Below, piece by piece: positions 16,490 through 55,184 of a stretch of DNA of 64,000 nt (position 1 is the stretch's first letter; the number at the start of each line of letters is the position of its first letter). The position numbers and the translations under genes were made by a program. A model generated the notes under the pieces. It saw only the letters and a list, made by a program, of their open reading frames with translations, was not told the DNA's origin and made no database searches. Origin of the DNA: Candidatus Woesearchaeota archaeon (GTDB lineage: Archaea > Nanobdellota > Nanobdellia > Woesearchaeales > UBA11576); NCBI GenBank assembly GCA_043819495.1, contig JBDRET010000024.1, forward strand, positions 7,177 through 71,176. Reading direction: 5' to 3'.

Positions 16490-17010
16490 TTAAGAAGCTC
16501 AGGAGGCTTATACTTGTCATGCATGTGCTTATGCCTGTACTCTGCTGTGTGGAGCGCAAAGCCGAGCACGAGAATTACTATGAACATCCCTACTGCAGTA
16601 CTTACGAATTGGTTGGCCGCGACTTTCGATACACTGGTCACAGCAGCACCTGTGATTGTAGGGTCACTGAATAATATATAGAATGATGCTGTGAACAACA
16701 GTACTGCGGCACCGATCATCGTGTATGCAGTGAAAGGAAACTTTTCCTGGCGGTCAGTGCTTGATGTGATAAGATCAGTCACGTACTTCTGCTTGTAATA
16801 TCTCTGTTTGACATCTGAAAGAAGATCATCATAAGGCCGGTTGTAGTTTCCGAGCTTATTGAGACGTCCTTGTATCTCATCCATCTGCTTTATCAGCTGG
16901 TTGTCAGATCTTATGCGTTCTACTTTAAGTTTGAGGATGCGAGCTTCTTCTTTCCTCTTCTCTGCAGCGCTGGTATTCTTGCCTGATGCTTTCCTCTTTT
17001 TGGTTGGCAT
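16486..17010 (-). CDS. Membrane protein with an N-terminal basic/coiled-coil segment and two C-terminal TM helices
   Basis: Hydrophobic stretches 'MIGAAVLLFTASFYILF' and 'MFIVILVLGFAL'. A 4-nt overlap with the downstream PRT gene suggests an operon. Confidence 0.4.
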   Translation of the reverse strand: MPTKKRKASGKNTSAAEKRKEEARILKLKVERIRSDNQLIKQMDEIQGRLNKLGNYNRPYDDLLSDVKQRYYKQKYVTDLITSSTDRQEKFPFTAYTMIGAAVLLFTASFYILFSDPTITGAAVTSVSKVAANQFVSTAVGMFIVILVLGFALHTAEYRHKHMHDKYKPPELLK

Positions 17011-21867: not shown

Positions 21868-21912
21868 TGAATAGGCAAAATATAAAAACCACAAGTCTTG
21901 TGCTTGTCTTTT

Positions 21913-22416
21913 ATGAAATCACTTGATGTAATAACCAAACTACGTGAACTGCAAAAGTTCAAGGAATGGAAGGAGAAGAATAAAGAATCGAATCTTGTCC
22001 ATCTGTTCATAATGATTGAACCAGGGAAGGATATCAAGTATGACATCGGTTTCTTTGATCTGAAGAAAAGTCTTATGACATCATTCCTTGTTGATGATAC
22101 AGTGAAAGACGCAGAAGTGACGGAGACCAAGGAAATATTCACGCAAGACAACCAGAAGATAACTCCACTTGAGCTGGAGAAGGTGAAGATAGGATTCGAG
22201 GAGGCTTTTGAGACTTCACGTACTCTGCAGAAAGAGAAGTACAGGCAGCACGAACCGCTCAAAAAGATAGTGATACTGCAGAATCTTCCAGATGGACAGG
22301 TCTGGAACATAACTTACATCACACAGACATTCCAGACACTGAACATGAAGATTGATGCAGAGACAGGACTTGTCGTCGAGGATTCACTGCACCAGATAAT
22401 CAGCTTCGATAAGTGA
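21913..22416 (+). CDS. Hypothetical protein
   Basis: Open frame with plausible composition. No recognisable motifs. Confidence 0.4.
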   Translation: MKSLDVITKLRELQKFKEWKEKNKESNLVHLFIMIEPGKDIKYDIGFFDLKKSLMTSFLVDDTVKDAEVTETKEIFTQDNQKITPLELEKVKIGFEEAFETSRTLQKEKYRQHEPLKKIVILQNLPDGQVWNITYITQTFQTLNMKIDAETGLVVEDSLHQIISFDK

Positions 22417-22949
22417 TCATTTTAAGATGTCACTGGCTTCATGTAAAGCAAAAACTTCTTCTTATTTTTTTACAAAATTCAAAACCATCATGCAGTGGTG
22501 CAATTCAGTTTCACTGAGTAATGATGTCGAACTGCAGACTATATGTTATTAACGATACTTTTCATCCTAGCTTAATTTAAATACCTGAATATCTTTTACG
22601 AAACATATCCGGTTCTGAATTCTTCATGATTTCAGGACCACCCCAACTTAAAGGCTTCGCTGGGAGAAAAAGAGCCTAAAAAAAGGAGGTTGGAAATTGG
22701 TTCCACAGAGTAACATAAGCTATAAAGATCAACAGAAATGCAAGACTCTTTTTGACTGCGTCGACATGAACTGCGTTGAAGTGGAAACTGAAAACGAAGA
22801 AGAATAAGTGATTACAGTGATATCATCCTTCTGAATCTTTTACCCAGCGGACTTTTTTATTCTCTTCCAACAGAGATTTTAGAATAACTTTCTTAGAAAG
22901 TGGAGAATTCAGATAGTCTGTTTTAACCTATACTCTCTGATCCTGATAT

Positions 22950-23834
22950 TCACTGTATAGGATAATTGAATTTTTGACCATCAGATAGCTTCCCTTCTTT
23001 GAACATCTCTAAGACCTTAAGTGCTGCAGAGACAGTATCCTCATGGCTTGTGGGCCTGTCAGTATTCACATACACGATCATTGACCCGTAAGAGTTTAGT
23101 AATGCCTTCAGCCACTCTGACCTGTACTTACCTTCAATCCTGCGCTGGAACTCAGGGACCTCAAATTTGCATTGGTCATCTTTGACCCTTTGAGCTTTCC
23201 GCTCCATAGCAGTATCTGCACTAAGATCGCATATCACGTAAAGATGAGGTGAATTCTCTGCAGCATAACTATTCCCTTGCATCCTCATTATATCATCAAC
23301 ACTGAGAGGATTGTCCATGGATGATTGGTATACTACGCTTGAGCAGAAGTTCCTTTCACAGTACACATCGATACCATCAAGTATTGCAGGCCTTATCAGC
23401 TTGGATATCAGTTCATGCCTATCCTCTGCATATGCTTCAGCAGCATCTTTTGCAGTATAACCAATGCCCTTCACTTCATGTATTATTTTTTTTCTTATCT
23501 TGAGCCCTATCCTGGCCCAGGTGGGTTCGCATACAAATAGTGTCTTGAGAGGCGCCCCGTTCTCATGCAGGTATCGCTCCTTGAGCATATTGTAATCAGG
23601 AATGATATCATCTGTGCCGTATATATCGTATAGTGAATTTCCTACTTCTGCAGGTATCTTCCCTTCTTCATCAGAAGGCCATAGAAGACGCATATCAAGG
23701 AAGCCATCACCTTCAGCTAAAAGCTTCTTCTTTATCGCATTTATTATGGAGCCTTTTCCGCCGCAGTCAATAGACTCTGCGACAAGGTATAATCCTGAAT
23801 CTTTCGAGTATCTTGAAATAGCCAGCATGATCAC
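22950..23834 (-). CDS. Thymidylate kinase-like P-loop kinase (long form, 294 aa)
   Basis: P-loop 'ESIDCGGKGS', 'FVCEPTWARIGLKIRKKI' (Tmk 'EPggt..g..iR'), and 'ERNFCSSVVYQSS' (Tmk DRY..S..AYQ). Confidence 0.5.
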   Translation of the reverse strand: MIMLAISRYSKDSGLYLVAESIDCGGKGSIINAIKKKLLAEGDGFLDMRLLWPSDEEGKIPAEVGNSLYDIYGTDDIIPDYNMLKERYLHENGAPLKTLFVCEPTWARIGLKIRKKIIHEVKGIGYTAKDAAEAYAEDRHELISKLIRPAILDGIDVYCERNFCSSVVYQSSMDNPLSVDDIMRMQGNSYAAENSPHLYVICDLSADTAMERKAQRVKDDQCKFEVPEFQRRIEGKYRSEWLKALLNSYGSMIVYVNTDRPTSHEDTVSAALKVLEMFKEGKLSDGQKFNYPIQ

Positions 23835-24034
23835 CGATTTATACTGTGATTCCCCTAATTCTCACCTCTCGTTCAAGGCGTATATAAACCTTTTCTTGAG
23901 ATATTTTCATGCTGGTTTTATGTCTTTTAAGTCAAACAAAAATCTTAAATATGCTCTAGAATCCGGTTGCTATACAGTTAGGGTAAGCATAGTGTATTAG
24001 GACATCGTGTTCATATGATGTCCAGATAAAAACG

Positions 24035-25801
24035 GTGCGATACAAGGGGTGTGACAGTTTGACAGAAGATATAGTGAACGATATTCTAGATTCAGAGGGA
24101 AATCTCAAACCGGGATTCAGTGGTATAGGTAAGCTAAGAGGCAAGACAGATTATACAAAAGATGAGGAGACAGTACTAAAGCATTTCTTCACCAATACGC
24201 ACTCAAATGTGTACTGCGCTACAGATAACATGCCAGGAGAGCTATGGGCATTGATAATGGGCCAGTATGCACGGAGCAGCATGACCGGAAGAGATAGGCT
24301 GCTCAAGCTGTTCACTGACATGGAAGAGAAAGGTGAAGCGATATCAGTATCCGAGCTAGCAGAGATGATACGATCTGGACGCGATGTCGCAGGAGCACTT
24401 CAAGCATACCTCAATAAAGCAGGGAATTTCATCGAGATATATGGTGTGAAGTACGGCCATGCATCACTACGAGATTCAGGTGTAATCAGAATATGTTTCG
24501 AAGGGGTGAGCCAGAGAGCCACCAAGTTCCTTGAGAGCGCCAGAGAGGGGGCATATCAGGAACAGTCTACCCGTGCCATCCCTTATGAGATGGAGAATCT
24601 TGGCGTCCCATATGAGATCCGTGACACCAAGTATGAGATCATCATACATGAGCTGGATGAGAAGCTCATCGAACTATACAATAAGATATACAATAAGCTG
24701 ATAGTATACCTGCCTAGTAAGTTTGCTCATCTCAGGGCCAAGGCCGATGAGAAGCTGGCTTCTGAGCTTGGCCGTGATGACGTGACGATAACTGACAGGG
24801 AGTGGAGCAGTATCATAGCTGCAAAGGCATTCGATGTCGCGAGATACCTGCTGCCTCAGAACATGACAACATCTTTAGGCATCACATTGAACACCCGAAG
24901 GTTCCAGGACAAGCTCACTGAATGGCAGTCCTCAGACATCATGGAGATGCAGGTGCTTGGAAAGGTGGCTCAGGTCGAGTCCATGAAGATAAGCCCTACG
25001 CTCATGAAGTACGGCAACAAGAGCCCGTATCATGTGAAGATACCTTCTGCACTTAAGGCGCTCAATAAGAAATTTGTAGTCAACAACAAGGCCTGTGCAG
25101 CTTTCCCTTACACACATTATGATGTCAGCTCAAAGATGATATCTGCCCCTGACGACCTGCAGGAACTGGTCCTTGCAAGCATACTGCTCAATGGTTCAGA
25201 TGGCAGTGTGAGCATGGATGAATTCAAGCAGATTGTAGGGAACATGTCATTTGATGAGAAACGTGAGGTCGCTGAGAGCGTAGCGTCAGATAAACCGTCT
25301 CATGACATATTCTCCAAGACGATGGAATGCGGATCAGTCATCTTTGAGAGAGTCTATGATATAGGTGCATTCAGGGACCTTCAGAGACAGAGAGGGGATA
25401 GGCAGCAATTCAACAGATATTCAGTCATAGGTTACAACATGCCTAAAGAGGTCGCAGAGATCGGTTTAAAGGCTGAGTTTGTCACTCTTATGAATGAAGT
25501 CAAGAATGTATATGATATGATGTGTGAAGAGGGTATCGCTGCGGCAGAGTATGTGCCTGTGATGGCAAATGTCCTGCGACACGTCGTCACAAAAGATCCT
25601 GTCCAGTGTTTCTATGAGGCGAAACTTAGAGCGCAGCCTGCAGGCATCGATTCTTACAGATCAATAGCTCAGCAGGAGATAACCCAACTTCTTGATGTGA
25701 TGCCTGTCTTCAAAGGTCTGGTACCCTACGATGCAGAATATTATAATCTTGGCAGGCTCGAAGAGACAGTCAATGGCAAGCTGAGGAAGCATAAGAAATA
25801 A
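24035..25801 (+). CDS. ThyX-like (flavin-dependent thymidylate synthase family) protein, tandem duplication of the ThyX domain with non-canonical RHR motifs
   Basis: First domain: 'GHASLRDSGVIRICFEG...FLESAREGAYQEQSTRA' aligns to ThyX 'GHETPFEHIVFTFHV...WFRHRIASYNELSGRY', and 'ARYLLPQNMTTSLGITLNTRRFQDKL' matches ThyX 'ARxvLPxNxxTxxxxTxNxRxLxxFL'. Second domain: 'AFRDLQRQRGDRQQFNRYS' and 'YVPVMANVLRHVVTKDPVQCFYEAKLR'. Confidence 0.45.
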   Translation: MRYKGCDSLTEDIVNDILDSEGNLKPGFSGIGKLRGKTDYTKDEETVLKHFFTNTHSNVYCATDNMPGELWALIMGQYARSSMTGRDRLLKLFTDMEEKGEAISVSELAEMIRSGRDVAGALQAYLNKAGNFIEIYGVKYGHASLRDSGVIRICFEGVSQRATKFLESAREGAYQEQSTRAIPYEMENLGVPYEIRDTKYEIIIHELDEKLIELYNKIYNKLIVYLPSKFAHLRAKADEKLASELGRDDVTITDREWSSIIAAKAFDVARYLLPQNMTTSLGITLNTRRFQDKLTEWQSSDIMEMQVLGKVAQVESMKISPTLMKYGNKSPYHVKIPSALKALNKKFVVNNKACAAFPYTHYDVSSKMISAPDDLQELVLASILLNGSDGSVSMDEFKQIVGNMSFDEKREVAESVASDKPSHDIFSKTMECGSVIFERVYDIGAFRDLQRQRGDRQQFNRYSVIGYNMPKEVAEIGLKAEFVTLMNEVKNVYDMMCEEGIAAAEYVPVMANVLRHVVTKDPVQCFYEAKLRAQPAGIDSYRSIAQQEITQLLDVMPVFKGLVPYDAEYYNLGRLEETVNGKLRKHKK

Positions 25802-25811
25802 TATTTTTATC

Positions 25812-26044
25812 GTATTTGTTTAGCCCTATACTCTTTGGCAGTGCCGCGCTGCTATGTATGCGTACCGGGAATAATGCGCAATCAGTCTTGCAGTGGCTAA
25901 AGCCAATCAGTCATCAATATGGCTACGCCCCGGTCTTCGTATCTTGACTCTACCGACGCTAAGCAGCGCCACACTACGTGCGGCTGGTCTTCGAGCATAG
26001 CTCAAAGGAGCGGCGGCACTGCCAGAAATAGCTAAACAAATACT
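25812..26044 (+). repeat. GC-rich 233-bp element bounded by 13-bp perfect inverted repeats (gtatttgtttagc / gctaaacaaatac) with extended imperfect inner IRs; candidate structured ncRNA or MITE
   Basis: Inner IR 'ctttggcagtgccgc' / 'gcggcactgccag'. The interior is GC-rich in an AT-rich genome and carries direct 'ggtcttcg' repeats. The right end's 20-mer 'agaaatagctaaacaaatac' recurs at 2799-2818. Confidence 0.5.
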
Positions 26045-26075
26045 TGTTATCTATTTTTTCTTCAGATATATATTA

Positions 26076-26891
26076 TCAACTGAGCGCTAATCTGGTCCTC
26101 ACATTTTTCTGTATCTGGTCTTTTCTCAGCCACCATACCCCCAGATAAGCGAATGGAGTGTCAAGCAGGGCGCAGAATATCTTGAATATCCAGAACGGAA
26201 CGATAAGAGATATGACAAATATTGCGTCCCACATAGGGGCGGTCTTGTAAAATGCCACAAACATGAACACTACACTGTCAATCAGTTGGCTCACTACCGT
26301 CGATGCGTTGTTACGCAGCCATAAGTGCTTACCTTCTGTCTTTCGTTTCCAGAACTCGAATGCCCACAGGTCATGCACCTGGGCGATGACAAATGCGAGT
26401 ATGCTTGCGATCGTCATGCGGATGGTCGCCTTGAATATCATAGAGAAACTGTTGTTGTCTATCGATCGTTCAGAAGCAGGGACTGCTATTGCGATAGATG
26501 TTATGACTATCATCAGAAGAAGCGCTATCACCCCTGTGGTGATGAACTCCATCACTTTCTTTTTCCCATGCACCTCAGCGATAATGTCAGTTATCAGGAA
26601 CATCAGAGGGACTGTGAGGATGCCTACAGAGACACTTATAGTATTGAAGAAGCCTAGTGATATCTCCCGTCCACCCATGGTGAGGAGGAAAGTCTTGAGA
26701 GCATATATTATCGGGAAGAACAGGATGTTGAGCGGTGTAGAAATGAATGAAGGCAGGTCAAACTGAGTTATCTTGCTGCCCAGCACATTCGCCAATATCA
26801 ATGAAGCGACAAATAGGCCTAATAATATGTTGGTCTTCTCTTTCATGTCAAACCGCATGTATCTAACCCCCGAATCAAGCAGTTTTGACAT
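26076..26891 (-). CDS. YhhQ/DUF165-family queuosine/archaeosine precursor (preQ0) transporter
   Basis: 7-TM protein with 'FLITDIIAEVHGKKK', 'ILANVLGSK' and 'FVIAQVHDLWAFEF', resembling YhhQ/QueT-family motifs. Confidence 0.55.
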   Translation of the reverse strand: MSKLLDSGVRYMRFDMKEKTNILLGLFVASLILANVLGSKITQFDLPSFISTPLNILFFPIIYALKTFLLTMGGREISLGFFNTISVSVGILTVPLMFLITDIIAEVHGKKKVMEFITTGVIALLLMIVITSIAIAVPASERSIDNNSFSMIFKATIRMTIASILAFVIAQVHDLWAFEFWKRKTEGKHLWLRNNASTVVSQLIDSVVFMFVAFYKTAPMWDAIFVISLIVPFWIFKIFCALLDTPFAYLGVWWLRKDQIQKNVRTRLALS

Positions 26892-27010
26892 TGATTATAA
26901 ACATTTCGCTTGGCTATTAAACTGCCATTTAAAAGTCATTTCAAGAATCAGCATTTTAATCCCATCTCGCCGGGTACATATTTAAATAAGGTCTTTTCTC
27001 TTCAGGTATC

Positions 27011-28195
27011 ATGGATGTCCAAATTACATATGATGATGTATTGAAGCACATGAACAGCATGGAGTTCTCAGGCATGAAGCTCGGGATAGAGCGGATACAG
27101 AACGCACTGGCCTTGCTTGGCAACCCTGAGAGACTGCTAAAGATAATACACATAACAGGCACGAATGGAAAAGGCTCTGTGGCAGCCATGCTGTCCACTA
27201 TGCTGAAGAATGCAGGCCATAGCGTGGGGATGTTCACTTCACCACATCTTGTCGATGTCAGGGAAAGGATACAGATAAATGATGTCCTTATCAGCAAAGA
27301 TGCTCTTAAAGAGACATTCCTGGAAGCAAAAGATGTACTGTCTGAACTGACGTTCTTTGAACTGTTCACATTGATGGCAGTGCTTTATTTTGTGAAGAAT
27401 AAAGTTGATTATGCAATATTTGAGGTAGGTCTCGGGGGCACTTACGATGCGACCAATTTCAAGAACTCTTTCATCTCAGTCATAACCAAGATTGCCCTTG
27501 ACCATACTGCAATATTAGGGGATTCTGTGGATCAGATAGCGCAGGACAAGTGCGGCATAATAAAACATGGCCAGAAGGTTGTCACGACGCAAGCTAACGA
27601 GCAGGTCATGGGGGTGATATCATCTGTTGCCAGGAAGAAAGAAGCACAACTCATTGTAGCCCGCAATACCGACAGACCCCTGTCGCTCAATGGACAGTTC
27701 CAAAGAGAGAATGCAGGAGTCGCAATCCAGGTTGCCAAAGAGTTATGCATACCTGATAAGGTAATATCCGATTCATTGCTTTCAGTCAGATGGCCTGGAA
27801 GGGCAGAATTCATAGAAAAGAATGTTCTGCTTGACTGTGCCCATAACCCTTCAGGTGTAGATGCATTGAGACATTATGTCGATACGCTGGACCATCAACG
27901 CATAATAATCGTTTTTGCTGTAAGCAAAAATAAGGACTATATGGAGATGCTTAGCTTGTTACCGAAGCATGATGAGCTCATATTTACACAATCCACAGTG
28001 ACCCGAAGGCTTCCGATAGAGGATATCCCTAAGGGCATATCATGTACGAGAATAAGTGATCCTATCAAGGCGCTTGAGCATGCAAAATCAATATCGAAAG
28101 AGGGAGACCTCATAGTCGTCTGTGGATCGATATTCCTGATAGGCGACATAAAAGCGGCACTAACCGACAAGCTTGTCCATGATATTGTTTCCTAA
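27011..28195 (+). CDS. folC: Folylpolyglutamate synthase / dihydrofolate synthase (Mur-ligase family)
   Basis: 'HITGTNGKGSVAAM' P-loop, 'TSPHL', and 'FEVGLGG' Mur-ligase motifs. Confidence 0.7.
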   Translation: MDVQITYDDVLKHMNSMEFSGMKLGIERIQNALALLGNPERLLKIIHITGTNGKGSVAAMLSTMLKNAGHSVGMFTSPHLVDVRERIQINDVLISKDALKETFLEAKDVLSELTFFELFTLMAVLYFVKNKVDYAIFEVGLGGTYDATNFKNSFISVITKIALDHTAILGDSVDQIAQDKCGIIKHGQKVVTTQANEQVMGVISSVARKKEAQLIVARNTDRPLSLNGQFQRENAGVAIQVAKELCIPDKVISDSLLSVRWPGRAEFIEKNVLLDCAHNPSGVDALRHYVDTLDHQRIIIVFAVSKNKDYMEMLSLLPKHDELIFTQSTVTRRLPIEDIPKGISCTRISDPIKALEHAKSISKEGDLIVVCGSIFLIGDIKAALTDKLVHDIVS

Positions 28196-28708
28196 ATCTA
28201 TGCAGGCCAGCTTTGTGTCTTCTTGTCTGTCGACATCTCCAGGGTCTTCTGCCTGTGCAATAACAGAGCCTACAGGGAGCACACCCATGACCTCGCAGTA
28301 TTTCTCGAGAATCTGTACAACGACCTTTGTCTCTTCTATGGCTCTGGCACCTACGCAAACTATTGCAGTAGCCTTCCCTTTGAGCAGTTGTGGATCTGAT
28401 AGCGGATTGGTACGGTCGATGAAATTCTTCATCAATCCAGTGACATTATCGAAGTAATTAGGGCTTCCAAAGACGATGGCATCAACTTCGAGCATCTTCG
28501 ATAACAACTGTTCCATGTCATCATTGATGACACAAGGACGTTCACTCCCGTAGCAGACGCCACAGCCATTGCAGAATTTTATATCAAAATCGCTGATCTT
28601 GATGATCTCGGTCTGGGCGTCACGTGCTCTGCAGGAATCCAGGATCCACGTGAGCAATCTTTTCGTGTTGCCTTCCTGCGGACTTCCACAGATGCCTAGG
28701 ACCTTCAT
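28160..28708 (-). CDS. NADPH-dependent FMN reductase / iron-sulfur flavoprotein-like
   Basis: '[14 protein letters not shown]', the Cys cluster '[14 protein letters not shown]', and '[10 protein letters not shown]'. Confidence 0.6.
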
Positions 28709-29985
28709 TCTATTAACCCTTCATATATCGGGAATCTCCTGCAGAGATCGAGTACTTCTGCTTTCACCTTTGATTTGGCATAGACATTATTCGGGTTCTT
28801 GATTATCTGTGATATGAATACGCCGATTATGCGCATCTCGTCTTCCTTCATGCCCCTTGTTGTCAGGGCAGGTGTGCCTATCCTTATCCCAGAAGGGTTG
28901 AATGGAGAACGGGTGTCAAAAGGTATCATGTTCTTGTTCGTGAATATCAATGCCTCATCAAGGGCTTTCTCAATCTCCTTTCCGCCGAATCCAGTCGGAG
29001 AGATATCGATGAGCATGAGGTGGTTATCAGTCCCACCTGAGACGAGCTTGACTCCTTGGTCCATGAGGGTCTCTGCAAGCACCTTAGCATTCTTGAGCAC
29101 TTGTCTCTGGTAAACATTGAAATCAGGATGGAGCGCCTCTCCGAAAGCTACTGCCTTTGCAGCTATTATGTGATCAAGAGGTCCGCCCTGCATGCCAGGG
29201 AACACTGCAGAATCTATCTTCTGGGCCAGGTTCTTCTTATCATCAGGTCTCAGCTTGTCATCTATCTTAGAGAGTATCATAGCGCCTCTTGGTCCTCTCA
29301 GTGTCTTGTGTGTCGTAGTGGTAACTACATCACAGAAAGGCACAGGATTCTGGTGGAGTCCTGCTGCGATGAGGCCTGCAATGTGAGCGATATCTGCCAT
29401 GTGGTATGCACCTACCTCATCAGCGATCTCCTGGAATTCCTCGAAGTCAAGCTTCCGCGGATATGCGCTGAAACCTGACAGTATGAGCTTTGGTCTTTCT
29501 CTCTTTGCTATCTTCCTTACCTGGTCCATGTCCAGGCGATGCGTCTTTGGGTCGACGCCATAGCTTGTAAAATTGTAGAACTTTCCAGAGAAATTGACCG
29601 GGCTGCCATGAGTGAGGTGACCTCCATGCGCAAGGTCCATACCTAGAATCTTATCACCCAGGTTAAGAAGTGCGAAGTACGCCTCCATATTGGCCTGTGA
29701 TCCTGCATGCGGCTGAACATTTGCATGCTCTGCACCGAACAGCATCTTTGCCCTGTCAATCGCGAGCTTTTCAGATACATCTATGTGCTCATTGCCAGCA
29801 TAGTAGCGCTTTCCTGCGTATCCCTCACTGTACTTGTTCGTGAGGACAGAACCCATCGCCTGCATGACAGCTTTAGAGACATAATTCTCAGATGCTATGA
29901 GCTCAACGCCCTTCCTCTGCCTGGCCAGCTCATTCTTCACGACGGAGAATATTTCAGGATCTTTCTCTTCCAGATTTCGCATCAT
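28705..29985 (-). CDS. glyA: Serine hydroxymethyltransferase
   Basis: 'LIASENYVS', the PLP-lysine region '[16 protein letters not shown]', and '[13 protein letters not shown]'. 4-nt overlap with the downstream flavoprotein gene. Confidence 0.9.
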
Positions 29986-30032
29986 CTTGTGTCAAAGGTC
30001 CAGTACAGAATATTTATACCTTTCTATTAGGT

Positions 30033-30096
30033 ATCTATCAAGATATCAGGCATCTATCAAGATATCAGGCATCTATCAAGGCATCTATCATGCAGG
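30033..30096 (+). repeat. Tandem direct repeats 'atctatcaagatatcaggc' (two full and two partial units) in the divergent glyA / kinase-deaminase promoter region
   Basis: Each 19-bp unit contains a 'gatatc' palindrome. The repeats lie between the divergent starts at 29985(-) and 30188(+). Confidence 0.55.
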
Positions 30097-30187
30097 TTTG
30101 GGCAGGTGATCTATCCTGTTTTCTTGGTGTCTTTTAAACTGAAGGTTTTTGTCTCCCTGTCTGGACAACACAACAAATAAATAAAAT

Positions 30188-31252
30188 ATGAAATCCTGTC
30201 AAAAGATGATAATCGGACTTGTCGGCATGTATGCATCAGGAAAGGATTCTGTCGCAGAGCATCTTGTCGAGAAAGGATTCACACATCTTTCCCTTTCTGA
30301 TATGTTACGAGAAGAGCTGAGGAAGAGAGGTCTAGATATAACCCGTGATAACCTTATAAATGTAGGAAACGAATTAAGAACGGTTCACGGGCATGGCGTG
30401 CTGGGGAAAAGAGCATTAGAGAACATAAAAGGCAAAGAAGGTGATTTTGTAGTCAGTTCTATCAGACATCCTGCAGAAGTAAAAGAGCTCATGCAGCATG
30501 GACATTTCTTCCTTGTTGACGTGCGGGCACCGATCAAGACGCGTTTTAAATGGATAAAGAAACGCAATAGGGAGAACGATCCTAAGACCCTGTCTGATCT
30601 AAAGGCAAAAGAAGCTCTTGAGAGTCAGAAAGAAGGACCTGGACAGCAGCTGACTAATACTATGAAGCTTGCGACGTTTGTGTTGTCCAATGACAGCACA
30701 CTCAAGAAACTTCAGGATAAGACTGACAAACTGGCCGTAGACCTCAAGAAGAAGGCTGAGACTATGTCAGAGTATGTGCGGCCTAGTTGGGATGAGTATT
30801 TCATGGGTATAATGGAAGCGGTCGCAGTGAGAGCAACATGTGCCCGTGGAAGGACCGCTTCAGTCATAGTCAAGGATAAGAGGATACTTGCGACAGGATA
30901 TGTCGGAAGTCCTGTAGGAGTACCTCATTGTGATGAGGCAGGTCATGAGTTCAAGCGGATGATACATGATGATGGAAGTGTCTCCCAGCACTGTGTCAGG
31001 ACAAGCCATGCAGAGCAGAACGCAATCTGTCTTGCAGCAAGGAATGGTGTTGCGATAGATGGAGCGACAATTTATTGCAAACTTGCCCCTTGCTATACCT
31101 GTGCAAAGATGATAATCAACTCAGGGATAGTAAGAGTGGTCTGCAAGATGAGATATCATGCAGATAAGGATAGCATGCGCATCTTCAAGCAGGCAGGCAT
31201 AGATATTGTCGTGTTGAATGATGATGTAGCTACATATGATGGGATGAAGTGA
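30188..31252 (+). CDS. Fusion protein: N-terminal UPF0200-like P-loop (d)NMP kinase, C-terminal dCMP deaminase
   Basis: N-terminal 'MIIGLVGMYASGKDS'. C-terminal zinc motifs 'HAEQNAI' and 'APCYTCAKMI' (CMP/dCMP deaminase). Confidence 0.65.
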   Translation: MKSCQKMIIGLVGMYASGKDSVAEHLVEKGFTHLSLSDMLREELRKRGLDITRDNLINVGNELRTVHGHGVLGKRALENIKGKEGDFVVSSIRHPAEVKELMQHGHFFLVDVRAPIKTRFKWIKKRNRENDPKTLSDLKAKEALESQKEGPGQQLTNTMKLATFVLSNDSTLKKLQDKTDKLAVDLKKKAETMSEYVRPSWDEYFMGIMEAVAVRATCARGRTASVIVKDKRILATGYVGSPVGVPHCDEAGHEFKRMIHDDGSVSQHCVRTSHAEQNAICLAARNGVAIDGATIYCKLAPCYTCAKMIINSGIVRVVCKMRYHADKDSMRIFKQAGIDIVVLNDDVATYDGMK

Positions 31253-31308
31253 CTTTTTAGATAGCTTCATAAATATTTATAAACTCCATTTCTTTTTGCA
31301 TGATTGAT

Positions 31309-31884
31309 ATGATAATCGCTATCACAGGCACGATAAGTTCCGGCAAAGGCAAAGTCGCAGAGCTGTTCCGGGACAAGGGATTCAAGCATCATAGTTTTTC
31401 TTCTGAGATACGTCAGGTCGCAAAGGAACATGGTATCGAGATAAACAGGAAGAACCTGAGCAAGCTTGGGCACGATTTGCGAGTCGAGAGTCCAAAAGAG
31501 TCAATTCTTGGTAAGCGGCTTCTTGATAAAATATTGAAAGAGATCGATAAGGGTGAGAAGAACTTTGTCATTGAGGGGTTGCGTGATTCTGATGAGGTTG
31601 ACATGTTTAGGAAGCACGAACTTGAGCGACCAGAGCAACGTTTCATACTCATCGGTGTCGATGCTCTGCAGGAAGTGCGTTTTGAACGGATGAAGAAGCG
31701 CGGAAGGCATGGTGAGCCAGAGACATTCGAGGAATTCAAGGCCATCGATGACCACGAATTGCTCGGTGACCAGGGACAGGAAGTCGGGAAGACGCTGAAT
31801 ATGTCTGATTATGTGATACAGAATGATAAGGGTCTCGAAGAGCTCAAGCAGAAGGTCGAGGATATCTCTTCGGAGATACTATAG
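31309..31884 (+). CDS. UPF0200-family P-loop kinase (paralog of the N-domain of the previous gene)
   Basis: 'MIIAITGTISSGKGKVAELFRDKGF' parallels 'MIIGLVGMYASGKDSVAEHLVEKGF'. 'tttataaa' lies ~30 nt upstream. Confidence 0.55.
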   Translation: MIIAITGTISSGKGKVAELFRDKGFKHHSFSSEIRQVAKEHGIEINRKNLSKLGHDLRVESPKESILGKRLLDKILKEIDKGEKNFVIEGLRDSDEVDMFRKHELERPEQRFILIGVDALQEVRFERMKKRGRHGEPETFEEFKAIDDHELLGDQGQEVGKTLNMSDYVIQNDKGLEELKQKVEDISSEIL

Positions 31885-32955
31885 TCTGCTGTCAGTAGCT
31901 CCAGTCTGTTCATTGTACTGTGATTTATCTTTATCTTCTAGTTCCCATGGCGAGTGCAGATAATACAGATGGAAATCTGCGAGCCGTTCTCCAGGTCTTA
32001 TTGTCACATCAGTCATAGCATAATTCTCGAATGTTATCTTACCACTGAATCTTGGGAATGGATCTATCTTTGGCGCACCTGCATGCGTCTGGAGCGAAGA
32101 GTGTCGTGAATACTCGTGGATGCCTGGCCCCACATATCCTGAAGTCGGCATCAGGTGATTCCATTCATGCACCCAACCCACAAAATGCTTGTCGATGCTT
32201 ACCTCTTCAGCGCTTGCTGAGAGAAAGAAAGTACCTGCTTTGATATATGTTCCTCTGTTTGCGAGCCTTCTCTCTTTAAACCATGTCGGGCTAGGCTCCT
32301 TTGGGTCGATTACCTCTCCGGTGTATATCTTTATTATCGGATCATGGGTAAGGGTGAATCCGCTGTTCATCTTCCTGCCGCCGGGAACTTTGGCACCTAC
32401 CTTGTATCCTTCATCTATTGCAAAAGTCTGCACAAGACGTTGTATCTCTTTACCTCGTCTTGTTATCTTCAGCTGTCCTGTCTTAATCTCTTCCCTGAGA
32501 ACATCGTCCAGAGCAGGGATGAAACCTCCGAACGCTATATGTGCCTGGGCAATCGTATCGCCAGGTCTTATCTTCACAGTCGTTCCGAGAGTGCGTATGC
32601 TGCAGATCACCTTGCCATAGAAATCACCATGCGGTTCAGAGAACTCATCGTGGACATCTGCAGATGCAACACCATACCTTGCCCAGCTGCTACGTGAGTT
32701 TATCTTACCATGGAACCAGTGTGAGAACCTGAATCTCTCTACTGTCTCGTATAAGAAAAAATCTCCTGGTTTCAGGAGCCAATATTCACCATCAATGAGA
32801 GGGACTTCTTTCATATCTTTACGGTCCTGAGAAGGAGTGAGAAGCTGACCTATCCGTACATCAAGAGAAGTCGCATTGATTTCTGTAATGCCTTCTATAT
32901 CTATAAGACCATGGTCTCTTGCAGCAGTCATATCTTGTTTACAGAGTATAGGCAT
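31879..32955 (-). CDS. Tandem dCTP deaminase/dUTPase-fold protein (Dcd-like, duplicated)
   Basis: 'INSRSSWARYGV' (Dcd 'RSSLARxGL'), 'VHDEFSEPHGDFYGKVICSIRTLG', and a second degenerate copy 'GAPKIDPFPRFSGKITFEN...IRPGERLADF'. Confidence 0.5.
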   Translation of the reverse strand: MPILCKQDMTAARDHGLIDIEGITEINATSLDVRIGQLLTPSQDRKDMKEVPLIDGEYWLLKPGDFFLYETVERFRFSHWFHGKINSRSSWARYGVASADVHDEFSEPHGDFYGKVICSIRTLGTTVKIRPGDTIAQAHIAFGGFIPALDDVLREEIKTGQLKITRRGKEIQRLVQTFAIDEGYKVGAKVPGGRKMNSGFTLTHDPIIKIYTGEVIDPKEPSPTWFKERRLANRGTYIKAGTFFLSASAEEVSIDKHFVGWVHEWNHLMPTSGYVGPGIHEYSRHSSLQTHAGAPKIDPFPRFSGKITFENYAMTDVTIRPGERLADFHLYYLHSPWELEDKDKSQYNEQTGATDSRL

Positions 32956-33726: not shown

Positions 33727-34353
33727 TTATAGCACACCTATGATCTGCATGAGCCTGACAAAACTTATCTTTATGTAACCTACCCAAGGTATCCGTACCA
33801 CTGCTTTTCCGATGTAGTTCTGCTCCATTATGCCAGTCTCAAATGCGAATGATGCAGGGTTATTATCTCCTTTTGTGGTGAACAGTCTTCCTTTCTCACC
33901 ATCTTCTATGATTATTATCCTGTGGATTATCGGATCAGGCCTTCCCGCATTGAATACTATCACGTCACCCACATTGAGCAGTGAGGGGTCAGTCCGGTAT
34001 AGGATCATTATATCTCCTTTATTGAAACCATTGCTGAACCTGAATTCCTGGAAGTTCTCTTTTGTGTACCCCAGAGCAAAATAGAACCTTCCCTGAGTGC
34101 AGTCGTATCTCTGCTCACAGTTCGCTTTCTGCTGCCACCAATACTCAAAGCCTCCATCATGCTCCATAGAGCTTGAGACCACTGCAACAATAGGGTGTGT
34201 TGTGGCGAGAACAAGACCCAGCGTTGGGTAGACTACAAACTTTATAAGTACAAATGCGAGTATTACGTTCACGAACCAGCTTGCCCAGCTGTCATCTTCC
34301 CAAATGAAATACCATACCTGCTTCCATGTATTCTTGGCCTTTTTCCAGTCCAT
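33727..34353 (-). CDS. Archaeal signal peptidase I (SEC11-like)
   Basis: 'IVAVVSSSMEH' carries the catalytic Ser. 'GDVIVFNAGRPDPIIHRIIII' and 'TKGDNNP' are present. The start is trimmed to MDWKK. Confidence 0.65.
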   Translation of the reverse strand: MDWKKAKNTWKQVWYFIWEDDSWASWFVNVILAFVLIKFVVYPTLGLVLATTHPIVAVVSSSMEHDGGFEYWWQQKANCEQRYDCTQGRFYFALGYTKENFQEFRFSNGFNKGDIMILYRTDPSLLNVGDVIVFNAGRPDPIIHRIIIIEDGEKGRLFTTKGDNNPASFAFETGIMEQNYIGKAVVRIPWVGYIKISFVRLMQIIGVL

Positions 34354-34396
34354 CCTTATTATGTCTCTGGAAAGTTTTAATAAGGTTTCGGTTAAC

Positions 34397-35182
34397 ATGA
34401 CCTGCATGAGATTCTGTCCAAAATGCGGTAAGAACGGCATACAAGGAGATTTCTGCAGTGAATGCGCTGAAAAAGAGCTTGACCTAACATTCAATGAGGT
34501 AGTCATCAAGAAATGCATCAGCTGTGCTAGATTCATGCTCCGTAATAGCTGGAAAGAGTTCAGGAACCTTGATGAAGGCATAATACGTGCAGCACATATC
34601 AAGATAAAGAACCCAAAGAATGCCGTGCTTGATATAACGCCAGATTACAAGGAATTGAAGAACAAACCAGGCGCAAAGCAGGAAATAAACCTTGAGATAG
34701 TTGCAGAGGGTCAGGATTTCGTCATACCTGCCACTATAGAGTTCACTTATTGCGACAAATGCGCAAAAGCAGGAACTCAGTATTTTGAAGGGGTGCTCCA
34801 GTTACGAGACGCAACTCCTGAACTGCTTGCTTTTGTCGAGAAAGATATAGCTGCTAATGTGAATGAAGGTGCGCATGTAACAACAAAGACCGGAAAAGGT
34901 GGTAATATCGATTTCATCATGACCTCTACAAAGTACATGCTTGCATTGGGGAAGAGGCTAAATCAGAAATTCAATGGTGAGCTCACTGTCACAGCAAAGC
35001 TATTTTCGCGGAACAGGCAGACAAGCAAGGAAGTATTTAGGACCAGTATACTGTTCAGGATGAGGACGTATAAGATCGGTGAGATAATCGAGACTCGAGG
35101 GAAAAAAATCAAGATAACAACCATAGGAAAGAAAGTGTCAGGCATAGATACAGAGACAGGGAAGAAAGTGTTTGTGGATTGA
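34397..35182 (+). CDS. NMD3-family (60S export adapter-like) zinc-binding protein
   Basis: N-terminal CxxC pairs 'CPKCG', 'CSEC', 'CISC', 'CDKC'. Basic C-terminus. Confidence 0.35.
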   Translation: MTCMRFCPKCGKNGIQGDFCSECAEKELDLTFNEVVIKKCISCARFMLRNSWKEFRNLDEGIIRAAHIKIKNPKNAVLDITPDYKELKNKPGAKQEINLEIVAEGQDFVIPATIEFTYCDKCAKAGTQYFEGVLQLRDATPELLAFVEKDIAANVNEGAHVTTKTGKGGNIDFIMTSTKYMLALGKRLNQKFNGELTVTAKLFSRNRQTSKEVFRTSILFRMRTYKIGEIIETRGKKIKITTIGKKVSGIDTETGKKVFVD

Positions 35183-35771: not shown

Positions 35772-37586
35772 TTATCCGCATCCACCTGCATCAGAAGCAG
35801 GTGCAGGTTCATCACCAGCAAGAGCTGCTAATTTAGCAGGGTTACATGCGTCAGGAGCTGTTGTGAATCCCTGACATAAGGCCTGTGCAAATCCTGCAGC
35901 AGCCCTAGATCCTGAGTAAGCAGCACCTTCAACAAATACTGTCGGTGAACCGCTCACACCAAGCGCCTTGTTCAATGCCAGCTCTCCAGCAAGAATAGTT
36001 TCCCATTCGTCAGCTTCACATCCCTTTATCTTTGCGACATCAAGTCCAAGACCCTTTGCGACAGGCTCCCAGCAGCTGTCTGCATTACTTGCACTGCACT
36101 TCTTGTTCATCTCCAATACGAACTTGAAGTATGCATCGATACCGATGTACTTGTCTACACATAGCTCGCGCAGTCCCTGGTTAAGCTCCTGCACCCCATG
36201 CATGGAACAGTACTTACTCTCTTTGTCAAGGCAGAAATTAGGTCCTCCGCCCTGGTAGTTCGAGTATATCACATAATGCGGGTTGAAGTCTGCCTTGCCT
36301 TTCAGCAGCTGATATGCAGGTTCTATCGCTTCTTCTGCCATATTACCATATGGGCAATAGCTCATGACATAGAAATCTATCTGTGGCCTGTTATCTCCTT
36401 TCGTGACTCCAGTCAGCTTCTCTATCTCGTCTCTCTTCTTCTTATCGAGAATATATGTAGCTCCGCTCGCATCATCCAGGATGATGAACTTTTCACCGAC
36501 CTTCCTGAATGCATTAGGTATGTTAGGGTTGTTCTGCCAAGAATAGGTCTCGCTCACATCTCCTGTGAAAACATATGCTGGTGCCTTCTCTAAGTTCAGG
36601 CTTTTTACCAATGCAGCTCCTTCTACATTTGATGCATCAACCTCTTCAACTTCCATGTTCAGGAAGACTTGACTGAGAACTGCTACTAGCTGGGATGCAT
36701 CACAGTTGAGGCATTCTTTACTGCTTACGACAGTCAGCTTGACCTCTGCGTCATCCTTGTAAGTGCATGTTGCGTCAGCTTTTCCAGGATTATTACATAC
36801 TCCTACCTTTCCTGGCTCTCCAGCGCATTCAACATCATTTGCGCAGGCAGGCATGTTTGCACAGACAGGGTGTTCACCTAGTCCTTGGCATATGGTCCTC
36901 TTGAATGAGGTCTCATCTCTCTGGCCTTGGTATAGCTTGCCGTCGATATATATTGTCGGGCTTCCTTGCGCATTGACTTCCATGCTCTTTGAGATAGATT
37001 CAGACATCAGTTTTTTGCCCTGAGCACCTTCAAAACAGGATCTTATCTTATCTGCATCTGCACCGATCTGTTTAGCGCATTTATCTATGGATCCTACAAG
37101 GTCCCTGACATCCTTGTTCTGACATACTACAAACTCAATCAGTCTTTCAGGATACTGCTCCTGTACACAGAGCTGGATTATATCTCCGTCAACTTCTGGC
37201 TGGCCGTGAAGGCTTTGGAATCCTCCATCCACTTCACCTGCTATGAATTCTAACCGGAAATCGATATTTGTGCCGATCTCTTTCATTACAGGTTCAATAG
37301 CATCCTCTACCTGAGTCCCATAAGGACATTGACTCATCACATAGAAAGTGACAGGAACAGATCCATACTGATCAGCATCAGTCACTTCAATATGTCTGGA
37401 CATAGATTGTGATAGTATCACTACAATCAGAACCAATACGATACCACCGATGATGTATTTAGTATAATTGCACTTCTTTTTTCTCTTCTTGTGTACATGA
37501 CTGTGTGTCTTGTGCGTATTCTTATGCGCATGTTCAGCTCCCTTGTGATGGCTTTCTGTATGCGCGGTCTTATCATGCTCTGTCAT
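35772..37586 (-). CDS. Membrane-anchored protein with a His-rich N-tail and two thioredoxin/DsbA-like domains
   Basis: 'FYVMSQCPYG' and 'FYVMSYCPYG' (single-Cys CPYG motif), 'GSPTIYIDG' and 'GSPTVFVEG' cis-Pro loops, and an N-terminal 'HTESHHKGAEHAHKNTHKTHSHVH'. Confidence 0.45.
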   Translation of the reverse strand: MTEHDKTAHTESHHKGAEHAHKNTHKTHSHVHKKRKKKCNYTKYIIGGIVLVLIVVILSQSMSRHIEVTDADQYGSVPVTFYVMSQCPYGTQVEDAIEPVMKEIGTNIDFRLEFIAGEVDGGFQSLHGQPEVDGDIIQLCVQEQYPERLIEFVVCQNKDVRDLVGSIDKCAKQIGADADKIRSCFEGAQGKKLMSESISKSMEVNAQGSPTIYIDGKLYQGQRDETSFKRTICQGLGEHPVCANMPACANDVECAGEPGKVGVCNNPGKADATCTYKDDAEVKLTVVSSKECLNCDASQLVAVLSQVFLNMEVEEVDASNVEGAALVKSLNLEKAPAYVFTGDVSETYSWQNNPNIPNAFRKVGEKFIILDDASGATYILDKKKRDEIEKLTGVTKGDNRPQIDFYVMSYCPYGNMAEEAIEPAYQLLKGKADFNPHYVIYSNYQGGGPNFCLDKESKYCSMHGVQELNQGLRELCVDKYIGIDAYFKFVLEMNKKCSASNADSCWEPVAKGLGLDVAKIKGCEADEWETILAGELALNKALGVSGSPTVFVEGAAYSGSRAAAGFAQALCQGFTTAPDACNPAKLAALAGDEPAPASDAGGCG

Positions 37587-55182: not shown

Positions 55183-55184
55183 TT

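Follow-up and report, generated by a model that had tools for sequence, protein, structure and literature searches.

A conserved neighbourhood of long-form enzymes, probably for thymidylate supply, on a Woesearchaeota chromosome

Does a cluster of pyrimidine deoxynucleotide genes on a DPANN chromosome serve ordinary thymidylate supply, a modified DNA base or antiviral defence, or does it have no shared function at all? DPANN archaea, whose genomes are very small, are thought to rely on hosts for nucleotides. We analysed a 64-kb stretch of DNA (the window) from a Candidatus Woesearchaeota (DPANN) MAG, and our reading is that the cluster is probably a housekeeping thymidylate-supply neighbourhood on the Woesearchaeota chromosome, divided among about five transcription units. 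A first-pass annotation had listed a Tmk, a tandem ThyX, a preQ0-type transporter, FolC, an FMN reductase, SHMT, a kinase::dCMP deaminase fusion, a second kinase and a Dcd. All nine ORFs were located where it had placed them, and Pfam and NCBIfam profiles of each ORF confirmed nine of nine families. The features are as follows.

22950 to 23834, minus strand: divergent, Tmk-like putative thymidylate kinase (Pfam Thymidylate_kin)
24035 to 25801, plus strand: ThyX, a flavin-dependent thymidylate synthase of two domains (internal duplication) whose active-site motif is split (Pfam Thy1, two stretches)
25812 to 26043, no strand assigned: 232-nt element bounded by inverted repeats, inside the ThyX–FolC insertion
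26076 to 26891, minus strand: Vut_1/YhhQ-family transporter of the queuosine/archaeosine-precursor type (Pfam Vut_1)
27011 to 28195, plus strand: FolC, folylpolyglutamate/dihydrofolate synthase (TIGR01499)
28160 to 28708, minus strand: predicted iron-sulfur flavoprotein, ISF-type FMN_red (Pfam FMN_red, 105.8 bits)
28705 to 29985, minus strand: serine hydroxymethyltransferase, GlyA (Pfam SHMT)
30025 to 30092, no strand assigned: tandem array of a 19-nt unit (2.9 copies, core ATCTATCAA) in the divergent promoter region between SHMT and kinase::deaminase
30163 to 30187, plus strand: promoter-like box GGACAACACAACAAATAAATAAAAT upstream of kinase::deaminase
30188 to 31252, plus strand: UPF0200/dNMP-kinase-like P-loop domain fused to a dCMP deaminase domain (P-loop kinase plus dCMP_cyt_deam_1)
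31300 to 31884, plus strand: separate UPF0200/dNMP-kinase-like P-loop kinase, paralogous to the kinase domain of the fusion (SSO1041 match)
31879 to 32955, minus strand: long two-barrel dCTP deaminase, Dcd, with one composite motif set (Pfam DCD, two stretches)

The order Tmk, ThyX, FolC, flavoprotein, SHMT, kinase::deaminase, kinase, long Dcd is kept in five other Woese-/Nanoarchaeota species (L001, L002, L006, L007 and L008), with protein identities of 54–83%, and because it recurs in this way the co-localisation is not attributable to chance. Reduced modules of ThyX and SHMT, with or without Tmk, kinase and deaminase, recur in more distant DPANN, and SHMT adjoins a two-domain ThyX in distant DPANN/CPR loci (L010–L012, L015, L036, L037 and L048). 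Genome streamlining could in principle have juxtaposed unrelated housekeeping genes with no functional meaning, an account that fits the use of both strands and several transcription units, the dispersal of the genes in L004 and L005, and the presence of a clearly unrelated insertion, the Vut_1 gene. We regard this account as extremely unlikely, since eight contiguous genes of one pathway hold their order across six species, and ThyX–SHMT adjacency arises again in DPANN/CPR loci in which ThyX is only 25–31% identical, though no other bacterial locus tested shows it. The scattering of the cluster genes in the more distant relatives L004 and L005 shows that function does not require clustering.

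The genomic setting is that of an ordinary archaeal chromosome. Genes for wyosine synthase, the CCA enzyme, TFS, NMD3, ThrRS, SRP54, eRF1, aIF5A and L37ae flank the cluster, the synteny of these flanks extends to L001 and L002, and GC content is uniform across the window, which is a housekeeping chromosome segment and not a viral one. The cluster is not a single operon and has three divergent intergenic regions. The predicted transporter (156 bits with Pfam Vut_1; 146.7 with the queuosine-precursor transporter equivalog TIGR00697, cut-off 50.95) is absent from the matching position in L001, L002 and L006–L008 and, among the genomes compared, occurs only in the source genome; it is a lineage-specific insertion between ThyX and FolC and is probably unrelated to thymidylate metabolism. 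The 232-nt element in the same insertion, which lies outside the conserved cluster and has no match in Rfam, folds with −92 and −97.6 kcal/mol on its two strands (z = −4.7 and −5.2). Between the divergent SHMT and kinase::deaminase genes, the tandem array (TRF score 98) contains all strict matches to the ATCTATCAA core in the 64 kb and is a candidate regulator-binding array; the equivalent intergenic region of L002 contains ATCTATT[AC]A four times, with a spacing of 11 nt, and repeats of this type are lacking there in L001 and L006–L008. The nearby GGACAACACAACAAATAAATAAAAT box is near-identical across all six genomes compared.

The ThyX gene likely begins at a TTG at 24059, as in the NCBI call (580 aa), and its product has the same sequence as a Woesearchaeota MAG protein at NCBI (100% identity). 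Pfam Thy1 matches it in two stretches (63.8 bits against a cut-off of 24.8), and the equivalog TIGR02170, a model that derives from single-domain ThyX, gives 18.2 bits, below its cut-off of 87.9. At the level of the predicted structure the ThyX fold is confirmed: the AF2 model has a pLDDT of 92, and the top 50 Foldseek matches in the PDB are all ThyX-family chains, each covering one half, with no PDB chain spanning both. Aligned with each other, the two halves are in register (hhalign E=6e-4), and they divide the active-site residues between them. Half 1 (S-A-R-E-G-A-Y-Q-E-Q-S-T-R; invariant E176, S178, T179, R180, D267 and R270) retains E-x-S-T-R and the R147 equivalent, and half 2 (R-Q-R-G-D-R-Q-Q-F-N-R; invariant R451, R453, L531 and R532) retains R-(H/Q)-R and the R174 equivalent. 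A contiguous RHRxxSxxxxSxR is thus not present within either domain and is complete only when both halves are combined. The first-pass annotation had taken these motifs as non-canonical and as a possible sign of exotic chemistry; the motif is indeed not contiguous, but it reads oddly because the canonical motif is divided between halves across a widespread two-domain class, so the exotic cue falls away.

That class is defined by two patterns, [GA]AY[QL]E[QK]STR in half 1 and GA[YF]RD[LV][QH]R[QH]R in half 2, both of which occur in the window protein. When the two split-motif patterns were used to retrieve 600 genomic stretches, 584 encoded full-length two-domain ThyX relatives, placing the class at no fewer than 584 loci in Chlamydiae, Chloroflexi, Actinobacteria, Myxococcota, Cyanobacteria, CPR and DPANN, and also in giant viruses. 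The window protein resembles the long enzymes (~530–590 aa) of Chlamydiae, Chloroflexi, Actinobacteria and others in having two Thy1 domains per chain and a split motif, whereas its DPANN clade has only 25–30% identity to other two-domain ThyX, carries RQR in place of RHR, has ~40 extra N-terminal residues relative to the bacterial enzymes, and sits in a conserved thymidylate gene neighbourhood that bacterial loci lack. The ThyX of C. trachomatis is, we presume, of the long two-domain type. It is active in NADPH-oxidation assays (PMC3498832). With canonical homotetrameric ThyX (T. maritima TM0449, M. tuberculosis Rv2754c) the window protein shares the fold (Foldseek TM ~0.65–0.70 per half), and equivalents of E86, S88, R90, R147, R78, R80 and R174 are all found in the one polypeptide, although spread over two non-identical domains, neither of which holds the full RHRxxS...SxR. 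Residues were mapped by aligning the family profile to Mtb ThyX, a remote similarity (E=3e-7). Among the pattern-search matches, no second two-domain ThyX was found in L006–L008, the three species genomes with this ThyX clade, which fits replacement and not an extra paralogue.

A modified pyrimidine had been the other option for this cluster, by analogy with phage: a divergent ThyX would modify C5, and dedicated kinases would carry a 5-hydroxymethyl or other C5-substituted dU or dC to the triphosphate. ThyX and Tmk do fall below NCBIfam equivalog cut-offs, the DPANN ThyX clade is divergent and has the RQR change, the additional kinases have relatives among the dNMP kinases of phages (phrog_139, Pfam DNMK), and a ThyX homologue with an altered substrate range exists, the PolB UMP/dUMP methylase, which is the top Foldseek match. 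Yet the DPANN clade and bacterial two-domain enzymes of ~27% identity have 23 invariant residues in common, among them the equivalents of T. maritima E86, S88, R90, R147, R78, R80 and R174; the dUMP- and FAD-binding residues of canonical ThyX do not vary between the two groups, and the split motif characterises the class as a whole and is not peculiar to the window protein. Co-localisation of pyrimidine-modifying enzymes, deaminases and dNMP kinases does recall phage thymidine/cytidine hypermodification clusters, but here the genes are chromosomal and syntenic, viral genes and post-replicative transferases are missing, and the C5 enzyme is of ThyX type with the residues common to bona fide thymidylate synthases. 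The cluster and the genes next to it include no glycosyltransferase, glycosylase, aminotransferase, amidotransferase, DNA-base transferase or partner of nuclease type, and the PHROG matches are to generic nucleotide-metabolism families only; the chromosome is stable and non-viral, and viral two-domain ThyX are at most 32% identical. To our knowledge, hypermodification pathways begin with ThyA-type hydroxymethylases and not with ThyX, which also counts against this reading. The modified-pyrimidine option is thus unsupported and, in our view, highly improbable. We give almost no credence to its strongest form, in which T or C in the DNA would give way to a non-canonical C5-modified pyrimidine, made and activated by the DPANN ThyX, the divergent Tmk and the kinase paralogues; if true, this would be a cellular pathway of DNA base modification built on ThyX, the first of its kind.

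Thymidylate supply, the reading that we prefer, is consistent with the enzymes that would act before and after ThyX. The deaminase at the end of the cluster had been described as a duplicated Dcd; two DCD stretches are indeed there, but they hold one composite motif set and not two. SRSSxARxG is invariant in the N-half, and TFEN, with the catalytic Glu309, and an SRYxGQxxAxxSR tail are invariant in the C-half, so that the hallmarks of dCTP deaminases (the RSSxAR loop, the catalytic Glu and the C-terminal YxGQ...S(R/K) tail) are all present; the invariants among 18 sequences are S86, R87, S88, S89, A91, R92, E309 and S344-R-Y-x-G-Q349. When the family profile was aligned to Mtb Dcd (2QXX), residues 1–109 of the latter matched the N-half and 110–183 the C-half. 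Relative to homotrimeric Dcd and bifunctional DCD-DUT enzymes (E. coli, M. tuberculosis, M. jannaschii), the window protein thus retains RSSxAR, the Glu in T-F-E-N and the (S)RYxGQxxAxxSR tail, but ~190 inserted residues split the motifs and form a second, degenerate barrel. The AF2 model (pLDDT 85) has its best match, over the full length, in the two-barrel long dCTP deaminase of A. tumefaciens (2R9Q, PF06559 type; E=5e-14, TM 0.64–0.69), although sequence identity is only 13%. TIGR02274 gives 77.9, under its cut-off of 92.8, and PF06559 (DCD_N) does not match the window Dcd, whereas it matches the distant family members P0134 and P0140. The close family members found number only 21, all from Woese-/Nanoarchaeota.

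Tmk is likewise divergent. It probably starts at an ATG at 23828, and scores 48.6 bits with Pfam Thymidylate_kin (cut-off 27) and 71.5 with TIGR00041, under the cut-off of 83.25. Its P-loop is of the adenylate-kinase style (D-C-G-G-K-G-S), with GKG(S/T/V) and not GK(S/T), and is followed by an insertion of ~45 aa. In the match to S. aureus TMK (2CCJ, E=1e-5), EPT, IRK, (E/D)R and SSxxYQ are kept, and the canonical DRY is ERN, the Arg being retained. Orthologues in L002, L006 and L007 are 63–67% identical and conserve the GKG P-loop.

The fusion gene probably starts at an ATG at 30206. The zinc motifs of its deaminase domain, HAE and PCxxC, are intact (SHAEQNA, APCYTCAK), and its closest relatives in the PDB are dCMP deaminases, led by those of S. 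mutans (2HVV, E=7e-25) and T4 (1VQ2, E=4e-17), with 4P9C and 2W4L; ComEB TIGR02571 gives 113.7, below its cut-off of 219. The kinase half matches UPF0200 SSO1041 of S. solfataricus (E=4e-13), which is also the closest solved protein to the stand-alone kinase (E=5e-9), and both copies align to SSO1041 end to end. Both also match dNMP-kinase profiles (for the stand-alone copy, 28.3 bits with Pfam DNMK and E=5e-15 with phrog_139, a dNMP kinase family). The fusion P-loop, S-G-K-D-S/T, resembles what we take to be the GKDT of the dNMP kinase T4 gp1; that of the stand-alone copy differs, being conserved as G-K-G-K/R. A third kinase paralogue with a canonical GSGKS loop occurs in some relatives.

An N-terminal P-loop kinase-like domain followed by a C-terminal zinc deaminase is also the architecture of the defensive dCTP deaminase (bioRxiv 10.1101/2021.04.26.441389), and homology to the anti-phage dCTP deaminase/AvcD is detectable: the fusion scores 130 bits with the PADLOC dCTPase model and 102.4 bits with NF041025, and the stand-alone kinase scores 73 bits with the former. 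The fusion, with or without the long Dcd, might therefore be a nucleotide-depletion module that lies beside thymidylate genes by chance. The NF041025 score is, however, far under the cut-off of 400, the fusion is much shorter than the defence enzyme (354 versus 576 aa), and the nearest relatives of its deaminase domain are dCMP deaminases of housekeeping and phage origin (2HVV). The place of the fusion between SHMT and the second kinase is fixed in six species, kinase–deaminase adjacency beside ThyX/SHMT recurs in other DPANN, and the 1972 homologues of the fusion are widespread, mostly in small-genome Woesearchaeota and CPR. No further PADLOC match or defence gene was found nearby, and neither an antitoxin RNA nor a defence island was seen. 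A defence role is on this evidence very improbable, and the fusion looks like a housekeeping relative of the anti-phage enzymes. The joint presence of dCTP and dCMP deaminases has precedent (PMC10733785).

The folate genes are close to canonical. FolC scores 335 bits with TIGR01499 (cut-off 162.65) and adjoins ThyX in five relatives at 60–64% identity; SHMT scores 568 bits with Pfam SHMT and 628 bits with NF000586 and is 79–83% identical to its counterparts in relatives. The gene first labelled an FMN reductase does belong to the FMN_red family, but C46-X2-C49-X2-C52-X6-C59 is conserved in all five orthologues, and because of this CX2CX2CX6C motif we re-identify the product as a predicted iron-sulfur flavoprotein and not a plain reductase. 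The ISF motif is CX2CX2CX5-7C (PMC3164229), and the protein combines this compact Cys motif with an FMN_red fold, as judged from sequence. Its gene overlaps the SHMT stop codon by 4 nt, and the two genes are therefore probably co-transcribed. The flavoprotein may supply reduced flavin to ThyX, a role that we only infer. ISFs are usually tied to oxidative-stress defence, which counts against flavin supply.

The route first proposed for the cluster, from dCTP/dCMP through dUMP and dTMP to dTDP with a supply of CH2-THF, is supported by the family assignments and by conserved catalytic motifs, family motifs being kept in Dcd, in dCMP deaminase and, apart from the variant P-loop and ERN for DRY, in Tmk. 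The long Dcd would deaminate dCTP to dUTP or dUMP; a dUTPase gene was not detected in the window. The deaminase domain of the fusion would convert dCMP to dUMP, and its kinase domain and the stand-alone copy may phosphorylate dCMP or other salvaged dNMPs; if they act on dCMP, the fusion would be the branch point at which dCMP goes to dCDP or dUMP. ThyX would methylate dUMP to dTMP with CH2-THF and reduced FAD, SHMT would regenerate CH2-THF from THF and serine, FolC would polyglutamylate folate and so retain it, and Tmk would yield dTDP. A dimer of the two-domain ThyX may form a pseudo-tetramer, in which only the interfaces that join half 1 (E-x-S-T-R, R270) to half 2 (R-Q-R, R532) would be active. 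The flavoprotein could pass low-potential electrons to flavin chemistry or protect it from oxygen. We conclude that the locus is most probably a compact, multi-promoter dTMP/dTDP supply neighbourhood of long-form enzymes.

The locus does not overturn current knowledge. It unites three under-studied long or fused enzymes, the two-domain ThyX, the two-barrel Dcd and the kinase::dCMP deaminase, and the last could help to show how defence by nucleotide depletion grew out of metabolism, or metabolism out of defence. The probable co-transcription of the flavoprotein with SHMT suggests that low-potential electron carriers may be linked to flavin-dependent thymidylate synthesis in anaerobes. Together, a conserved, near-complete dC-to-dT module suggests that these DPANN archaea keep dTTP supply in-house, and makes visible the enzyme forms that they use to do so.

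All nine ORFs that the first-pass annotation had assigned to pyrimidine deoxynucleotide and thymidylate metabolism were found where it had placed them, and Pfam and NCBIfam profile scores bore out its family names, with SHMT and FolC canonical by score:

22950–23834 (−), Tmk-like kinase (Pfam 48.6 bits; TIGR00041 71.5, below 83.25)
24035–25801 (+), ThyX, a protein with two Thy1 stretches (Pfam 63.8 bits; TIGR02170 only 18 bits)
26076–26891 (−), Vut_1/YhhQ-type transporter (TIGR00697 146.7, above 50.95)
27011–28195 (+), FolC (TIGR01499 335 bits)
28160–28708 (−), FMN_red flavoprotein (Pfam 105.8 bits)
28705–29985 (−), SHMT (Pfam 568 bits)
30188–31252 (+), P-loop kinase fused to dCMP deaminase (Pfam dCMP_cyt_deam_1 75.2 bits)
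31300–31884 (+), second kinase (closest solved relative UPF0200 SSO1041, E=5e-9)
31879–32955 (−), Dcd, a protein with two DCD stretches (Pfam 75.7 bits)

The cluster is not one operon: its genes fall into some five transcription units, and three of the spacers are divergent (23835–24034, 26892–27010 and 29986–30187). Its co-localisation is meaningful: the order Tmk, ThyX, FolC, (flavoprotein), SHMT, kinase::deaminase, kinase, (long Dcd) is kept in five other Woese-/Nanoarchaeota species (L001, L002 and L006–L008), whose ThyX proteins are 67–74% identical to that of the window. At more distant loci (L010–L012, L015, L036, L037 and L048; DPANN plus one CPR locus), ThyX is 25–31% identical yet still adjoins SHMT, and sometimes also lies beside a kinase, a dCMP deaminase and Tmk; at the sensitivity used, SHMT, kinase, deaminase and Tmk neighbours were absent from all other bacterial loci tested. 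Among further relatives, L004 (61% identical) retains only Tmk and a PF06559 Dcd nearby, and the genes are scattered in the closed genome that contains L005 (43% identical). The order kept in five species and the recurrence of ThyX–SHMT in distant DPANN indicate that, as judged from gene order, this lineage has consolidated a recurrent DPANN theme into the supercluster. The Vut_1 gene is not counted in the thymidylate system, nor is a 232-nt inverted-repeat element beside it; both occur in this genome only, inserted between ThyX and FolC. Just past Tmk, six genomes conserve a 172-aa protein (21898–22416, +), also encoded near ThyX in L015 (33% identical), for which Pfam, NCBIfam and PDB gave no match. 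The spacer downstream of its gene (22486–22726) shows 68–77% nucleotide identity and is overlapped by a 36-aa Cys-containing ORF (22697–22807, +) preceded by AAGGAGG; protein, spacer and ORF may be candidate members of the thymidylate neighbourhood.

The two-domain ThyX belongs to a widespread family, with 940 matches in a protein search and at least 584 loci in a search of one genome per species. Hosts include Chlamydiae/Parachlamydiaceae, Chloroflexus/Roseiflexus, Sorangium, cyanobacteria, Acidimicrobiia, Patescibacteria and Micrarchaeota, and viral contigs, many longer than 200 kb, carry 30 further loci. Alignments revealed that the two halves retain the canonical ThyX motif in complementary parts. 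Half 1 reads S-A-R-E-G-A-Y-Q-E-Q-S-T-R: RHR has lost its first Arg and its His; counterparts of T. maritima E86, S88 and R90 remain, as does D267/R270, the R147-region equivalent. Half 2 reads G-A-F-R-D-L-Q-R-Q-R, with RQR in this clade versus RHR in bacterial members; it keeps L531-R532, the R174 equivalent, and lacks the SxR part and an R147 equivalent. Residues were mapped by profile alignment to M. tuberculosis ThyX and by aligning one half to the other with hhalign, which placed the halves in register (E=6e-4), using the T. maritima sequence and its known residue roles. Because 23 positions are invariant across 60 sequences, spanning the DPANN clade and bacterial enzymes around 27% identical to it, the alignment argues for the same chemistry in DPANN and bacterial two-domain enzymes. 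The AlphaFold model (pLDDT 92, pTM 0.90) matched only ThyX-family structures, each covering one half (TM around 0.65–0.70 by target, at most 0.29 by query), and that structure search returned no PDB chain spanning both halves. Among the two-domain loci found, no second copy occurs in L006–L008, the species genomes carrying this clade, which suggests that the clade is a replacement rather than an added paralogue. Chlamydia is not known to carry thyA, and its long ThyX is described as a genuine thymidylate synthase. In NADPH-oxidation assays, C. trachomatis ThyX is an active enzyme (PMC3498832). A literature search for DPANN or chlamydial two-domain ThyX, or for a woesearchaeotal thymidylate synthase, returned no relevant paper.

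The Dcd-like gene, described earlier as duplicated, does hold two DCD stretches by Pfam. Its 358-aa product has 20 detectable relatives, all from Woese-/Nanoarchaeota, and PF06559 is found in more distant ones. SRSSxARxG is invariant in the N-half, as are T-F-E-N (with the catalytic Glu309) and the tail SRYxGQxxAxxSR in the C-half. When the family profile was compared with M. tuberculosis Dcd, residues 1–109 aligned to the N-half and 110–183 to the C-half, with a degenerate second barrel of around 190 residues between the aligned parts. The structural model (pLDDT 85) had a full-length match (E=5e-14) in 2R9Q, a 370-aa A. tumefaciens '2'-deoxycytidine 5'-triphosphate deaminase'. BLASTP against the PF06559 Dcd beside ThyX in L004 aligned the N-barrel only (E=1e-5); kinship to PF06559 Dcd is suggested by structure and distant family members.

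Each of the two kinases aligns with UPF0200 SSO1041 from one end to the other and is matched by dNMP-kinase profiles (Pfam DNMK and phrog_139). Their unusual P-loops could be taken as a sign of pseudo-kinases, a reading we rejected since orthologues keep the GKG and GKD variants: the fusion has SGKD[ST], the stand-alone kinase GKG[KR] and Tmk GKG[STV]. These loops also resemble those of adenylate kinase and T4 gp1. The deaminase domain of the fusion has intact HAE and PCxxC motifs, and its nearest matches are bona fide dCMP deaminases (2HVV, E=7e-25; T4 1VQ2; human 2W4L). The fusion may act as a dCMP branch point, either phosphorylating or deaminating this nucleotide. The fusion has 1972 relatives, mostly from Woesearchaeota and CPR. 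Anti-phage dCTP deaminases have the same architecture and are detectably homologous to it (PADLOC 130 bits; NF041025 102, below 400), but the fusion is much shorter and has a fixed metabolic neighbourhood, and we read it as a putative housekeeping relative of these defence proteins. A third UPF0200-type kinase, whose P-loop is the canonical GSGKS, is present in some relatives, located between the fused and stand-alone kinases in L006 (~16523) and L007 (~10189) and directly upstream of an unfused dCMP deaminase in L015 (~11480) and L036 (~5214). Where L006 and L007 hold this kinase, L001 has a HIT-family hydrolase (16189–16623).

The flavoprotein had been called an FMN reductase; its FMN_red family membership stands, and its type is that of an iron-sulfur flavoprotein (ISF), as defined by C46X2C49X2C52X6C59, kept in all five orthologues. 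This is the compact ISF motif described previously (PMC3164229). The ISF and SHMT genes overlap by 4 nt at the SHMT stop codon, and we conjecture that ISF reduces the ThyX flavin or shields it from oxygen.

Upstream of kinase::deaminase, the box GACAACACAACAAATAAATAAA (30163–30187) is nearly invariant in all six genomes and is probably a promoter; its position implies that the true start is ATG 30206, with a very short leader. The same divergent spacer, between SHMT and kinase::deaminase, holds a tandem array (30025–30092; 19-nt unit, 2.9 copies) with core ATCTATCAA, a possible regulator-binding array. The equivalent spacer of L002 holds four copies of ATCTATT[AC]A at 11-nt spacing (15140–15181), and the other four relatives have no array. 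With the array confined to this spacer in two of six genomes, a regulatory motif common to all divergent promoters was rejected. The 232-nt element (25812–26043) separates the 3' ends of ThyX and Vut_1 and has nested inverted repeats at its boundaries (GTATTTGTTTAGC...GCTAAACAAATAC and GGCAGTGCCGC...GCGGCACTGCC); on both strands it folds much more stably than shuffles (z −4.7 and −5.2); 20 nt from its right end are repeated at 2799–2818. It matched no Rfam family, and a metagenome scan with its stem sequences yielded 33 loci sharing 11-mers only and no true homologues. Candidate identities are an ncRNA gene, a MITE-like remnant or a bidirectional terminator.

The window is a stable chromosomal region, neither virus nor island. 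GC content is uniform, the genes flanking the cluster are syntenic in relatives, and archaeal housekeeping genes lie elsewhere in the window (a TYW1-like wyosine enzyme, CCA-adding enzyme, TFS, NMD3, ThrRS, intein-containing SRP54, eRF1, aIF5A, L37ae and prefoldin). Viral or mobile origin was rejected, as PHROG and PADLOC scans gave only generic nucleotide-metabolism matches and two-domain ThyX proteins in the viral contig scan were at most 32% identical. Both the ThyX-like and the Dcd-like protein have 100% identical counterparts in an NCBI 'Candidatus Woesearchaeota archaeon' MAG (126-kb contig). No tRNA genes or Rfam families were found in the window, and Pfam scans of its other ORFs of at least 120 aa, plus two shorter ones, detected no second thymidylate synthase or dUTPase. 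An intein carrying a LAGLIDADG homing-endonuclease domain splits the SRP54 gene (48255–51437, +). Families best known from eukaryotes are represented by two MATCAP-family (tubulin tyrosine carboxypeptidase-like) proteins (38613–39695, −; 54115–55275, −), a GILT/DsbA protein with a VSR-type thioredoxin-like domain (35772–37586, −) and NMD3 (34304–35182, +). Also present are a GAF-domain adenylate/guanylate cyclase (8675–10309, −), an adenine phosphoribosyltransferase-like salvage enzyme (15956–16489, −) and a protein with Bro-N, a domain family common in viruses (52054–52920, +), adjoining a LigD 3'-phosphoesterase domain protein (52898–53302, +).

From the family membership, motif conservation, fold and neighbourhood conservation observed for the cluster, we infer its substrates, electron donor and active-site number per oligomer. 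In the proposed pathway, dCTP and dCMP would be deaminated to dU nucleotides, and two-domain ThyX would methylate dUMP with CH2-THF. Because ThyX releases THF rather than DHF, as is established for its chemistry, no DHFR would be needed; SHMT would recharge the folate, FolC would keep it as polyglutamate, and Tmk would make dTDP. The first-pass annotation had also raised a pathway to a modified pyrimidine, as in phage hypermodification; this suggestion found no positive support in the sequence evidence, and we regard it as very improbable that the cluster makes a modified base. A literature search returned no paper describing the cluster. All components of the proposed thymidylate pathway belong to known kinds, and the long ThyX, the long Dcd and the kinase::deaminase fusion represent known architectures that have been little characterised.
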